From an archaeon (GTDB lineage Archaea; Iainarchaeota; Iainarchaeia; Iainarchaeales; 0-14-0-20-34-12): a stretch of DNA of 19,410 nt. The number at the start of each line of letters is the position of its first letter. The first letter of the stretch is position 1. The position numbers were made by a program, and so were the translations under genes. This document shows positions 8,100 to 17,324 of this stretch, piece after piece. Where the stretch lies: positions 62,848 through 82,257 of the forward strand of contig JBBSVU010000001.1 of assembly GCA_038046645.1 (NCBI GenBank), written 5' to 3'. The notes under the pieces were generated by a model. That model was not told the origin of the DNA. It saw only the letters and a program-made list of their open reading frames with translations, and made no database searches.

Positions 8100-9296
8100 A
8101 TGACTAGAATATCCTTAGATAAAAAAAATAGAGAGAAGCTATTCAAATTACTAAAAAAACAATATGGCACTCTATCATACTTCAAATTAGCTAAAAAGAT
8201 AGGGGTGCCTTACAAAAGCTTACAAAACTGGATCTATGGGGAACGCCTAATCCCTACAGGAATAATCCCAAACAAGTTACTAAATAAAATAAAAATTGAG
8301 CAGATAAGGGAAAATAATTGGGGGCAAATAAAGGGGGGGCTTATTGGAGGCAAAATTGCCATTAAAAAACTTTTAAGCAAATATTCTAAAAAAGAGTTAA
8401 TTAAATGGAGAAAAAATATTGGCAAGAAAGGTGCAGCAAAAGCAAATAAAACACTTAAAAAATTAAAACATAAAAACCCCGATTATTTTTATATACTGCT
8501 AAGAAAAAAGAAATTTGCAAAAAATTTTCAAAAATTGAGTAAAAAGAAATTGCAAAAAAAGGAGATAATGCTAGACACCAAAAGCATACCTTACAGCCCT
8601 ATTGATATTAAAAAAGAGATTAGATTGCCCACTAAATTAACTCCTGAATTGGCAGAGATTATTGGGGCACATACTGGAGATGGGACACTTTCAACAAAAA
8701 GATATTATTTTTCAATAAGAACTAGCATATTTGAAGAGGAATATTTCACAAAACACGTTTTTCCCCTATATAAACGAACGTTTAACATTAATTTAAAATT
8801 ACTAAAAAGACCACCTATCTGCGGTTTTGAAACAAGTTCAAAAGCAATACATTATTTTAAAAATCAGATATTTGGTCTGCCCATAGGCACCAAAACGCAC
8901 AAAATAGGAGTATCTCCATTAATCTCAGAAAGTAATGATAAAAAAATAATGGGTGCTTTTTTGAGAGGAGTGTTTGACACAGATGGTTGTGTTTATTTCT
9001 CCAAACATCAAACATATCCAGTATTAAGCATTACTGTCAAATCAAAAAAAGCTATAAAAGGGATGGGATTGCTACTTAAAAAACTAGGATATGATCCACA
9101 TATAAACCTTAAGAGTTATACTGTTTATTTAAATGGGGTACTGAAATTCAAGAAATGGCTTGATGAAATTGGAACAAAAAACCCAAAACATCAAAAAAGA
9201 ATAAATAAAATAAAGGAAAAACTTCCTTGGGCGGAGATCGAAAAAACCTTAAATGAAATTTCAAATATTCAAGCAACCGATGGTTCCGTGGTGTAA
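8100..9296 (+). CDS. Free-standing double-motif LAGLIDADG (DOD/intein-type) endonuclease with N-terminal HTH; stop codon inside tRNA-Arg
   Basis: Motifs ELAEIIGAHTGDG and AFLRGVFDTDG; HTH-like YFKLAKKIGVPYKSLQNWIYG; no intein splicing termini. Confidence 0.9.
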   Translation: MTRISLDKKNREKLFKLLKKQYGTLSYFKLAKKIGVPYKSLQNWIYGERLIPTGIIPNKLLNKIKIEQIRENNWGQIKGGLIGGKIAIKKLLSKYSKKELIKWRKNIGKKGAAKANKTLKKLKHKNPDYFYILLRKKKFAKNFQKLSKKKLQKKEIMLDTKSIPYSPIDIKKEIRLPTKLTPELAEIIGAHTGDGTLSTKRYYFSIRTSIFEEEYFTKHVFPLYKRTFNINLKLLKRPPICGFETSSKAIHYFKNQIFGLPIGTKTHKIGVSPLISESNDKKIMGAFLRGVFDTDGCVYFSKHQTYPVLSITVKSKKAIKGMGLLLKKLGYDPHINLKSYTVYLNGVLKFKKWLDEIGTKNPKHQKRINKIKEKLPWAEIEKTLNEISNIQATDGSVV

Positions 9297-13532: not shown

Positions 13533-13619
13533 GCCCTATTAGCGCAGTGGTTAGCGCACGTGCTTGGTATCTATTGAACAAATAGCACGGGGTCCCGGGT
13601 TCAATTCCCGGATAGGGCT
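13533..13619 (+). tRNA. tRNA-Thr(GGT) with a 14-nt intron at 37/38 (13570-13583)
   Basis: GCCCTAT/ATAGGGC acceptor; CGTGC-TTGGTA[TCTATTGAACAAAT]A-GCACG; CCGGG-TTCAATT-CCCGG. Confidence 0.93.
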
Positions 13620-14602
13620 CTAACTTTAGCTAAATTTCTTTCATTAGAAAAACCTATTAGCTGCATCCATTTTTCTAATTGTGCTAGTCCATAAACTTCA
13701 ATACAATAGCTGCACCTTTTAACATTCTCATGAGTATACAAACTAAATTCCTTTGACAAAATTTCTTTAAGTTGTAAATATAAGTTCTTGCTTACTGTCT
13801 GTAAAGTAATCCGCGGATAACATCCTTTATATGTTGGTCTTTCATCCAGATAGACACAACCATCAGTATCAAAAATTCCCCTAATTGTTGCAAAAATAAA
13901 TTTTTTATCAGATGCGAGTATCACATCTGGAATTTTTATTGTAAAAGACTTTTTACCAACCGGAAAATCAAATTTATTAATTAAGAAATGAAATAATGGC
14001 TTAGAATGAAATCTAACCCTCACAACATTACCTAAAGGTACTTCGATTATTTTTCCTTTAAGAATGCTTATGCTATGTTCAAGGTTGTTAGTTAAATAAT
14101 TAATATATTGTTTGTCTTTTTTTAGATTACCAACTACTTCAATAAGATACCTATTTTCATATTTCCCTATAAATCCATCTCCAATTAAAGCACCAATAAA
14201 TTCACAAATAATCTCTGACAAAGGCATATTTATGCGTGAGAAATGATGATACCTTCTCCAATTGCTTTTTATTGCCTTCATTCTTCCCTTCTCAAATATT
14301 TCGGGGTACTGTTTGGAAGTAATTTTCCCACCCAATTTAGCTCCCCAATTTGCTTCTTTTGTTGAAATATTTTGCAGAAAATACTGTTGCTTTGATTTTT
14401 CTAAAGCAGAATTAAGTTCAGCAAACAAATCACAGGGCAATGTGTTAATGCCATATTGATATCTTTGAAAAACACTTCGGTAAATGCCTAACGTATTCGC
14501 TAAATCTCTCCAAGTTTTAGCAGCATAAGAACTTCTTATGTCTTGGAAAAAATCTTCCCTTATTTTGTCATCTTTAAAATAAACTCTCGTATTTTTATCC
14601 AT
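13601..14602 (-). CDS. Free-standing double-motif LAGLIDADG endonuclease with N-terminal HTH; stop codon antisense within the tRNA-Thr T loop
   Basis: Motifs ICEFIGALIGDG and ATIRGIFDTDG; HTH-like WRDLANTLGIYRSVFQRYQYG; NWGxxxGG linker shared with 8100-9296. Confidence 0.9.
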   Translation of the reverse strand: MDKNTRVYFKDDKIREDFFQDIRSSYAAKTWRDLANTLGIYRSVFQRYQYGINTLPCDLFAELNSALEKSKQQYFLQNISTKEANWGAKLGGKITSKQYPEIFEKGRMKAIKSNWRRYHHFSRINMPLSEIICEFIGALIGDGFIGKYENRYLIEVVGNLKKDKQYINYLTNNLEHSISILKGKIIEVPLGNVVRVRFHSKPLFHFLINKFDFPVGKKSFTIKIPDVILASDKKFIFATIRGIFDTDGCVYLDERPTYKGCYPRITLQTVSKNLYLQLKEILSKEFSLYTHENVKRCSYCIEVYGLAQLEKWMQLIGFSNERNLAKVRALSGN

Positions 14603-16131: not shown

Positions 16132-16926
16132 ATGAGATATCTAAAACCTAAATGCTTTAACTATGTCAATACAAATATTCAGGCACTTCCCAAAGATAGT
16201 TTACTATTTAATGCTGAACTAAGGCTCATGCCAAATAAAAGAACAAGAACAGTACGATTCTATTCGACTCCCCTAAACAAAAAAATACGTAAAAGAGCTA
16301 TTTACATTAGCATAAAATTTAATAAAAAACAAAACATATTTTACCTAAAACCAATAATTAAAGGTAAGAACCGGTTGTATGCCTTACGTAAAGATACTGT
16401 TGGATTTGCAGCAACCGATATGACCAAAAAAATAAAACTTAAGTCTGGAAAAACACGAAAGTGCGCAGTTTTAATAAAGCCCACTGATTTTGGATTTAAA
16501 TTATCCGAACACATAATTGACAAAGATGCCTCTAAGCTATATAAAGAATTAATTAAATTAAGTTTTTTGAATTACCCTATAAAAGTGACACCTAACAATC
16601 ACTGTGGTGACCTACTTGTTTCAAAAAAAGGAAAAATATATTGTATCCATATTAGTGTTGCCTGTCCACATACTTCTAATAGAAAAATAAGGTCAATTAA
16701 CCGACACCGCTTATTTGGGAAAATAATTTATCAAGCAATGGAAGCCACAAAGAACCTTAAGTGTAAAAACATTGCAATAATTAATAAAGAATTAGTGGAT
16801 ACCAACACATTCAATGAGACTACTGTTAATTTTCTAAAAAAACATGTAGATTTATTGATATTCACAGATTTTTCACATAATTGGGAAAGAAAAGTAGCTA
16901 ATATAATTGCCGAGGGCGTGAATTGA
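16132..16926 (+). CDS. Basic orphan with possible C-terminal PD-(D/E)XK nuclease-like fold; stop codon antisense within the tRNA-Met T loop (alternative start 16228)
   Basis: K/R-rich; HCGDLLVSKKGKIYCIHIS resembles the D-hhh...h-E-x-K core, but with H-x-S in place of E-x-K. Confidence 0.6.
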   Translation: MRYLKPKCFNYVNTNIQALPKDSLLFNAELRLMPNKRTRTVRFYSTPLNKKIRKRAIYISIKFNKKQNIFYLKPIIKGKNRLYALRKDTVGFAATDMTKKIKLKSGKTRKCAVLIKPTDFGFKLSEHIIDKDASKLYKELIKLSFLNYPIKVTPNNHCGDLLVSKKGKIYCIHISVACPHTSNRKIRSINRHRLFGKIIYQAMEATKNLKCKNIAIINKELVDTNTFNETTVNFLKKHVDLLIFTDFSHNWERKVANIIAEGVN

Positions 16927-17020
16927 ACACGCGATCTTTCGATTGCCCCCTAGTTAAAGGTTATGAGTAACGTCGTCTTGAAAAGACTCGAACGCTCTAA
17001 CCGGACTGAGCTACCCCGGC
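16908..17020 (-). tRNA. Elongator tRNA-Met(CAT) with two introns: 30/31 (16969-16988) and 37/38 (16944-16961)
   Basis: GCCGGGG TA GCTC AGTCCGGTTA GAGC G TTCG[20 nt]A CTCATA[18 nt]A TCGAA AGATC GCGTG TTCAATT CACGC CCTCGGC A; removing both introns gives a clean cloverleaf. Confidence 0.92.
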
Positions 17021-17047: not shown

Positions 17048-17054
17048 TTTAAAA
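17048..17054. promoter_or_regulatory. Likely bidirectional TATA (TTTAAAA) between tRNA-Met and the C/D sRNA
   Basis: About 30 nt from tRNA-Met G1 (17020, minus) and from the sRNA stem start (17082, plus). Confidence 0.55.
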
Positions 17055-17081
17055 CTGTTTCTGGCAAGGTATTTTTAGCAA

Positions 17082-17163
17082 GGCGTCAATGATGAACGGA
17101 CTGAGCGCCGAGCCTTTTGCAAAAAAAAAGGCAGTGTGGAGCCAATATGAGTCCTGAGATGCT
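17082..17163 (+). ncRNA. Box C/D sRNA predicted to guide Cm34 of elongator tRNA-Met (sR-tMet/sR49-like)
   Basis: C ATGATGA 17089-95; D' CCGA 17108-11; hairpin; degenerate C' GTGTGGA 17134-40; D CTGA 17154-57; terminal stem GGCGTC/GATGCT; both guides are complementary to the adjacent tRNA-Met. Confidence 0.85.
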
Positions 17164-17180
17164 AAAAATAATTTAAATAA

Positions 17181-17248
17181 GGTTTCTCTTTTTCTTTTGA
17201 TAAGCCTAAATTTTCTTTTTCTCTTTCGCAAAGAGAAAAAGAAAAGTT
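17181..17248 (-). repeat. Pyrimidine/purine hairpin element, copy D, directly upstream of tRNA-Glu
   Basis: 16-bp stem 17211-17226/17230-17245; on the minus strand the loop is GCG and the tail TCAAAAGAAAAAGAGAAAC, as in copy A. Confidence 0.8.
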
Positions 17249-17251
17249 GGC

Positions 17252-17324
17252 GCCCCGATAGTCTAGCGGTCAAGGATGCTGCCCTCTCACGGCAGTGACA
17301 CGGGTTCGAGTCCCGTTCGGGGCA
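17252..17324 (+). tRNA. tRNA-Glu(CTC)
   Basis: GCCCCGA/TCGGGGC acceptor, CTGCC-CTCTCAC-GGCAG anticodon arm, TTCGAGT T loop. Confidence 0.96.

Follow-up and report, generated by a model that had tools for sequence, protein, structure and literature searches.

How a box C/D ribonucleoprotein gains access to the wobble base in a folded tRNA, while avoiding an initiator that carries the same anticodon loop, is the question raised by a small locus of the archaeal lineage Iainarchaeota (GenBank assembly GCA_038046645.1, contig JBBSVU010000001.1). The window analysed, a stretch of 19,410 nucleotides to which all plain coordinates refer, was initially annotated as containing a box C/D sRNA transcribed back-to-back with its own target, the gene for elongator tRNA-Met. 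Comparison with related genomes (identified below by G numbers, the present genome being G000) indicates that the RNA at 17082-17163 (+) is a genuine small guide RNA, conserved in an archaeal lineage with small genomes, and that its ribonucleoprotein would, with good probability, bind elongator tRNA-Met through both guides and methylate C34. The relevant features are collected in Table 1.

Table 1. Coordinates of the sRNA, its presumed target and the neighbouring elements in the window.
Feature	Position	Strand	Remarks
Box C/D sRNA, core plus terminal stem	17082..17163	+	Boxes read directly; homologues in at least 41 genomes
Terminal stem 5' arm, 6 bp, kink-turn register	17082..17087	+	At least 5 pairs in the same register, with other letters, in 15/32 homologues
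Box C, ATGATGA	17089..17095	+	Canonical; T, G, A, G of the box invariant in homologue alignment
D' guide, 12 nt	17096..17107	+	Pairs with the tRNA-Met D arm from G10 to G18 (10 pairs); +5 opposite C13
Box D', CCGA, degenerate	17108..17111	+	In homologues CTGA 12/33, other NNGA words 21/33
7-bp hairpin, D'-C' spacer	17112..17132	+	Fold plus alignments
Box C', GTGTGGA, degenerate	17134..17140	+	Direct reading, alignment
D guide, 13 nt	17141..17153	+	8 pairs with G30-A37 of spliced tRNA-Met; +5 opposite C34
Box D, CTGA	17154..17157	+	Canonical
Terminal stem 3' arm	17158..17163	+	Pairs with 17082-17087
11-bp inverted repeat	17070..17080 (left arm), 17160-17170 (right arm)	.	Overlaps predicted start site
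Near-palindromic TATA box (TTTAAAAC)	17048..17055	.	Centre 31.5 nt from tRNA 5' end, 30.5 nt from sRNA stem
Elongator tRNA-Met(CAU) gene, two introns	16908..17020	-	Rfam RF00005, 52.9 bits; complete cloverleaf once both introns are removed
18-nt intron at 37/38	16944..16961	-	Absent from the initial annotation
D target core, A31-A37	16962..16968	-	C34 at 16965; G30 at 16989, across the 30/31 intron
20-nt intron at 30/31	16969..16988	-	Strict bulge-helix-bulge; outer helix pairs G22-G24 with C32-C34
D' target, G10-G18	17002..17011	-	C13 at 17008
tRNA-Glu(CTC)	17252..17324	+	Most constant neighbour of the family

The features by which box C/D RNAs are recognised were found together at this locus: the boxes follow the order C, D', C', D, the guides are of about 12 nt (11-13 nt for the D' guide in 33 homologues), a terminal stem is present, and each guide places a Watson-Crick pair at +5 (C34 for D, C13 for D'). 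The genome also encodes the core proteins fibrillarin, Nop5 and L7Ae, for which a search had been proposed at the outset (all above the Pfam cut-off), together with a splicing endonuclease. The layout had been described as canonical, which holds for the order and for boxes C and D but not for the degenerate boxes D' and C'; the hairpin reported between the latter two was confirmed, the spacer that contains it varying in relatives from approximately 3 to more than 100 nt. Structured D'-C' insertions of some 60 to 130 nt, with both guides intact, were observed in the homologues of G014, G040, G089 and G092. The 11-bp inverted repeat said to flank the RNA does exist, but is probably not the terminal stem: it is a common A/T word with 14 copies in the genome, and it competes for the same bases with the proximal 6-bp stem immediately beside the boxes, which had been overlooked. 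Homologues other than those with at least five pairs in this stem are mostly stemless. Transcription probably begins near 17076. Between the sRNA and tRNA-Glu lies an A/T-rich hairpin repeat (17182-17247), of which this genome holds approximately 19 copies and G001 holds others; tracts resembling it fill the long introns of the tRNA genes for Pro, Trp, Gly, Tyr, Asp, Ser and Ala.

The box layout alone was not significant, two candidates being found in the genome as against 0-2 in each of 10 shuffled versions, so that it is conservation which carries the case for an RNA. The sole other canonical C/D-like candidate that the pattern gave in the genome, at G000:C21:7663 (+), has a short terminal stem. 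Conservation was assessed in 215 genomes of the phylum by means of two search patterns, which required a box C, the core of the D guide and a box D and nothing else, the D' guide being left unconstrained. This yielded 41 rows and 39 distinct matches, and none in reversed controls; 32 of the matches had a D' guide complementary to the D arm, three proved to be a Leu-type sister RNA (vide infra), and four were neither and look like chance. The G014 homologue was taken from a separate locus rather than from the pattern search, and a profile constructed from 27 members, when run against 61 genomes, contributed eight more homologues, bringing the family to at least 41 genomes in 15 of 37 taxonomic families. 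No copy was detected in either of the two closest relatives, G001 (74% complete) and G002 (94% complete), nor in many families that possess Nop5; since Nop5 was present in all 61 genomes, its presence or absence is uninformative with respect to the sRNA.

A stricter pattern applied to 185,579 genomes, in which A31, a CTGA box D and the spacing were fixed such that absence elsewhere is not implied, recovered 31 loci: 16 with the full layout, 13 bacterial chance matches, and one each in Thermoplasmata and Altiarchaeota. Nine of the full-layout loci are labelled Ca. Iainarchaeum or similarly, four are labelled as archaeal, and three carry other labels that look wrong; six metagenome contigs hold further copies. 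The Thermoplasmata locus (L036) corresponds to Rfam sR41 and has a D' guide that does not fit the D arm of its own tRNA-Met, while for the Altiarchaeota locus (L053) no tRNA-Met was found in the genome concerned.

These data bear directly on the suggestion that no functional RNA is produced here, the motifs having arisen by chance or through a local duplication in which a segment of the tRNA gene was inverted. Such an origin could account for a layout near chance level, for a target only 90 bases away, and for the outcome of the Infernal/Rfam search proposed initially, in which no family exceeded its gathering score with either the window or one homologue. It is nevertheless exceedingly improbable, given an RNA that recurs in at least 41 genomes and 15 families, in several orientations and at distances of kilobases from the tRNA gene, with a guide and a terminal stem that covary.

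The presumed target begins 68 bases from box C. It is presumably an elongator tRNA-Met, an assignment made from the G1-C72 and A31-U39 pairs and the CAU anticodon by the usual identity rules. ARAGORN missed the gene in the window and called it Ala in the genome. At the non-canonical 30/31 position, or adjacent to it, unrelated introns are found repeatedly in the tRNA-Met genes of G019, G104, G105, G012, G174, G089 and G048, which represent several families. The initiator tRNA-Met gene, at G000:C6:16068-16159 (-, approximate coordinates), has a 37/38 intron and was called Ser by ARAGORN; the 89%-complete assembly contains a tRNA-Ile(UAU) gene at G000:C11:11266-11341 (+) and showed none for Ile(CAU). 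Elsewhere in the window, two LAGLIDADG-like open reading frames at 8100-9296 (+) and 13601-14602 (-) end within tRNA genes (Arg on the same strand and Thr in antisense, respectively), and a 264-aa frame at 16132-16926 (+), which lacks both a Pfam match and another copy in the genome, terminates in antisense inside the 3' end of tRNA-Met, within a possibly inverted stretch.

The sequence CGGACTGAGC is present both at 17097, in the D' guide, and at 17002, in the tRNA gene, and the resultant guide/D-arm duplex comprises 10 Watson-Crick pairs (-21.3 kcal/mol). The proposed match to the D arm with +5 opposite C13 was thereby confirmed, and was moreover unique: excepting its own antisense, it was the only Watson-Crick match of at least 10 nt through +5 in the 1.17-Mb assembly. 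Genome-wide, 492 of 2,338,244 12-mers contain a 10-nt complement to the tRNA-Met gene.

Covariation between guide and target was examined in the 30 of 33 pattern-found genomes for which tRNA-Met was recovered, among which the D loop takes five forms. The D' guide forms a mean of 9.8 pairs with its own tRNA as against 8.6 when the tRNAs are permuted, a value reached in none of 10,000 permutations, albeit among kin that are not independent. The D-loop form of the same genome was the best fit in 26 of the 30, tied in three and worse in one (G015). In a quickly built rpiA tree of 30 rows, in which G015 and G018 sit on long branches and from which G020 was omitted as too short, the D loop changed four times, and the D' guide followed fully in three lineages (G000, G018, and the group G028/G078/G080) and partly in G015; the sister genome G002 retains the common D loop, indicating that the change in G000 is recent and that the guide changed with it. 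Further matches were seen in G012 and in G079, the latter outside the tree with the D-loop type of G028 and one bulge. Seven of the eight profile-found genomes had a tRNA-Met, and all seven D' guides matched it, as judged by eye and with a profile that favoured such guides. Covariation thus supports, at the level of sequence, the view that both guides are aimed at elongator tRNA-Met. The D' guide also fits other tRNAs, which in this genome means tRNA-Ile(UAU) (10 pairs, one wobble), and it has no D-arm match in the initiator gene.

The D guide forms eight contiguous pairs with the spliced tRNA (-10.1 kcal/mol), or seven if the +1 base is disregarded, confirming both the proposed pairing opposite C34 and the shortness of the duplex. 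A guide scan over the whole 89%-complete assembly, in which the rRNA genes look partly assembled such that rRNA targets are incompletely covered, found no longer perfect target for it, although one had been envisaged as a better explanation of the guide. The pairing pattern in the family could not sustain the argument that the order of splicing follows from the eighth pair, as the +1 base forms a Watson-Crick pair in one of the 30 genomes, a wobble in 19 and a mismatch in 10; furthermore, it lies outside the guide core, positions 3-11 according to the cited account (PMC7229835). While the search patterns themselves dictated positions +2 to +6 and +10, which carry no evidential weight, the unconstrained +11 position pairs with C40 in 24 of the 30 genomes, and across the family the D guide pairs through the 37/38 junction to reach exon positions 38-40. 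Twenty-two of the 30 targets have no intron, four have one at 30/31 and five one at 37/38, G000 having both. In the other genomes with a 37/38 intron the spliced junction was clearly the better fit in three of four, G091 fitting both forms. The likely substrate of the family, as read from these alignments, is hence spliced or intronless tRNA-Met. In the present genome splicing at 30/31 would probably still precede guide action, because the outer helix of that intron pairs C32-C34 with G22-G24.

The distal part of the D guide is degenerate here relative to the family consensus, and this departure might imply that the guide has drifted or been re-aimed, for example at the initiator pre-tRNA-Met or at the elongator form that retains the 37/38 intron, the C34 of the spliced elongator being no longer the main target. 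Split pairings with these candidates reach -10.8 and -12.3 kcal/mol, respectively, compared with -10.1 for the mature elongator. Yet the gains in energy are small and require looped-out stretches, the same distal change occurs in G085, the tRNA-Met of which is intronless (comparison with its congener G084 shows the change to be a one-base deletion), and the initiator D arm offers the D' guide no match; re-aiming is accordingly considered very unlikely, and spliced elongator tRNA-Met is retained as the preferred target.

A distinct variation was observed at position +7, where the D guides of G015, G090, G091 and G102 have a U that mismatches U36 of tRNA-Met; the homologue in G089 shares it. The same base pairs with A36 of tRNA-Leu(CAA), the gene for which was compared for G015 alone and gave the better fit (11 pairs). 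Guides of this type in all five genomes may, on the basis of this base, serve both Met and Leu(CAA).

The register of the D' guide proved more variable. Its +5 position falls on C13 in 23 of 33 homologues, on A14 in four and on G15 in six, the D' box being chosen by rule and the G15 cases resting on weak ATGA/GTGA boxes. A register that drifts suggests that D' may be an anchor rather than a guide for Cm13. It is tentatively proposed, with somewhat less than even confidence, that D' serves mainly as a tRNA-identity handle, which would select elongator over initiator and pry open the folded, spliced tRNA for the short D duplex, in a manner resembling human SNORD97, evidenced by natural covariation and repeated in a sister RNA for tRNA-Leu(CAA). 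By this account, specificity could be supplied and the D stem opened by D', given that the initiator gene offers the D guide eight pairs, one of them a wobble, but does not match the D' guide.

A different interpretation, that of two independent catalytic guides, would have D make Cm34 and D' make Cm13 on tRNA-Met and on tRNAs with a similar D arm, with no cooperation. It gains from the presence of C13 at +5 in many families and of a CTGA box D' in 12 of 33 homologues, from the reported functional independence in vitro of C/D and C'/D' (PMC7229835), and from the predicted placement of Pyrobaculum sR61 on C13 of tRNAs Tyr and Phe (PMC6009581). It gains also from the group G028/G078/G080, where the D duplex has decayed to 5-6 bp while an 11-bp D' match with a CTGA box is intact, suggesting that D' can be retained for its own sake; no better target for the D guide was found in the tRNA-Leu(CAA) of G028. 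Against it, D-arm pairing persists while the register moves to A14 or G15, the C' and D' boxes are often degenerate and sometimes more than 100 nt apart, and a full-text literature search combining Cm13, tRNA and archaea returned phage-display papers only. Fully independent action, the main rival to a joint grip by both guides, is on balance rather unlikely.

The sister C/D RNA was observed at G075:C18:9670-9719, G077:C3:455-504 and G079:C3:37667-37715 (loci L087, L088 and L073), in the last case in tandem with the Met guide. In tRNA-Leu(CAA) its D guide matches the anticodon arm, placing C34 at +5, and its D' guide matches the D loop, placing G18 at +5; in G075 these amount to 11 and nine pairs, respectively, with one wobble each, the fit in G079 being weaker. 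The tRNA-Leu(CAA) genes were located by DNA search, pattern searches having yielded chance matches only.

The arrangement of the genes was then considered in relation to the initial proposal of a co-regulated guide-target pair sharing one TATA. A single TATA box does lie midway between the two genes, and to judge from its position is probably used in both directions: in the section of PMC6640164 cited, one TATA of P. furiosus is used bidirectionally with start sites approximately 50 nt apart, and the spacing here is compatible. The notion that guide and target were selected to share a bidirectional promoter draws on this precedent, and on the location of the sRNA and tRNA-Met on one contig in 24 of 30 genomes, with the sRNA 7-32 nt behind in three. 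It fails, however, to account for the arrangements elsewhere: relative to tRNA-Met the sRNA is divergent in one genome only, as against six in tandem behind it (including the three within 7-32 nt), 17 convergent and six on another contig. Divergence from tRNA-Glu(CTC) is by comparison common (17 of 33, 12 of them within 170 nt), with five further cases in tandem ahead of that gene. Moreover, wherever rpiA and tRNA-Met occur in one locus in other genomes (31 of 31, including G002 of the same family; six genomes had no rpiA match), tRNA-Met follows rpiA on the same strand, whereas here it lies on the opposite strand, indicating that the tRNA-Met gene has been inverted in this genome alone. Selection for co-regulation is thus unlikely. 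From these comparisons, the cluster of Met, sRNA and Glu is what is conserved, the back-to-back layout is a local inversion rather than a conserved design, and the sRNA seems to use the promoter of any neighbouring tRNA gene.

The sequence of events most compatible with these findings would begin with transcription of an sRNA gene that borrows the promoter of an adjacent tRNA gene, inversion of tRNA-Met having here put both on one TATA. The stand-alone sRNA would assemble with L7Ae, Nop5 and fibrillarin, and its D' guide would pair with the 5' strand of the D stem plus the D loop, opening the tRNA and separating the elongator from an initiator whose anticodon loop is the same but whose D arm differs. 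The D guide would pair with the anticodon arm, setting C34 for 2'-O-methylation on a spliced or intronless tRNA, with the D' site (C13 here) possibly methylated too. The geometry appears permissive: the target stretches, approximately 9-19 and then 30-40, end beside the C/D kink-turn and are joined by a linker of about 10 nt, so that both duplexes could form together. Protein-free co-folding of the sRNA with the tRNA was set aside, since the structures it yields disregard the boxes, and two simultaneous duplexes are beyond what it can represent. The single SpoU-family gene in the genome represents a candidate protein-only route to Cm34; for archaeal SpoU/TrmJ, action on position 32 is a prediction in the cited portion of PMC2584109.

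Methylation of C34 in tRNA-Met is itself already known, and what appears to be new, as far as sequences can indicate, is an archaeal guide that would grip the D arm of a spliced target and covaries with it, together with the sister RNA for tRNA-Leu(CAA). A literature search, outside which most subscription papers fell, found no description of the family or of archaeal Cm13. An RNA of approximately 80 nt with three proteins and a set of natural variants (shifts in D' register, decayed D guides and matched D-loop changes) renders the cooperation of two guides testable in vitro, and the results add an unannotated RNA family, possibly Cm13, and a tRNA gene mis-called by standard tools.

Among archaeal systems, the precedents cited initially, Pyrococcus sR49 and haloarchaeal sR-tMet (RF02163), are apt in being stand-alone C/D sRNAs that guide to C34 of elongator tRNA-Met at +5, and degenerate boxes with an extended D'-C' linker are likewise found in the haloarchaeal guides. 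sR49 and sR-tMet are less apt in mechanism, as they pair partly with a 37/38 intron and act before splicing (PMC2584109, PMC7994747, PMC4033218), whereas the present family pairs with exon positions 38-40, and no contiguous intron pairing is seen here. Because the described archaeal guides rely on intron pairing and most of the present targets are intronless, the family cannot act likewise; judged by this defining feature of the D guides, it is outside the sR49/sR-tMet type. RF02163 had no match in this genome. Rfam sR41 (RF01126) has a consensus D guide ending in CUAUGAGcg-CUGA, in the same C34 register, but differs in its distal guide (GCCC), its variable D' guide and the lack of a hairpin, the window scoring 8.2 bits as against a gathering score of 54.

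Dual guides to one tRNA are rare in Pyrobaculum, where PMC6009581 lists four cases. One of these, sR61, is predicted to select C13 of tRNA-Phe through D' and C32 through D and is to that extent similar, although its targets are Phe/Tyr and remain predictions; another, sR44, is a C/D gene that adjoins the elongator tRNA-Met gene with fluid spacing, but its predicted target in the same source is 23S rRNA rather than its neighbour. In the reduced archaeon Nanoarchaeum equitans a tRNA-sRNA dicistron likewise places a C/D sRNA immediately after a tRNA gene, an order also seen in G006, G014 and G015; in N. equitans, however, the gene is for tRNA-Val, which the section of PMC3491384 cited does not describe as the target, and the tRNA-Met-linked RNA is intronic.

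The closest two-guide analogue is human SNORD97, in which, according to the relevant part of PMC10576143, D' binds the D arm of elongator tRNA-Met (predicted Gm22) and D binds C34, with tRNA-Leu(CAA) as a further target. SNORD97 and SCARNA97 (SNORD133) thus resemble the present family in a D guide directed at C34 of elongator tRNA-Met, and SNORD97 does so also in placing D' on the D arm of the same tRNA and in cross-targeting Leu(CAA); the SCARNA97 probe given in PMC6601510 implies an ending GAUUAUGAG-NN-CUGA, as in the consensus of the archaeal family. No SNORD97-type family was listed by Rfam at E values up to 10 for the window or one homologue, and the similarity of the D guides may reflect the common target only. 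The human RNAs differ in being intron-encoded and longer (216 nt for SCARNA97), and the human D' is predicted on G22, on the 3' side of the D arm, as opposed to the 5' strand and loop (C13, A14 or G15) in the present family. The archaeal family offers a simple model for SNORD97.
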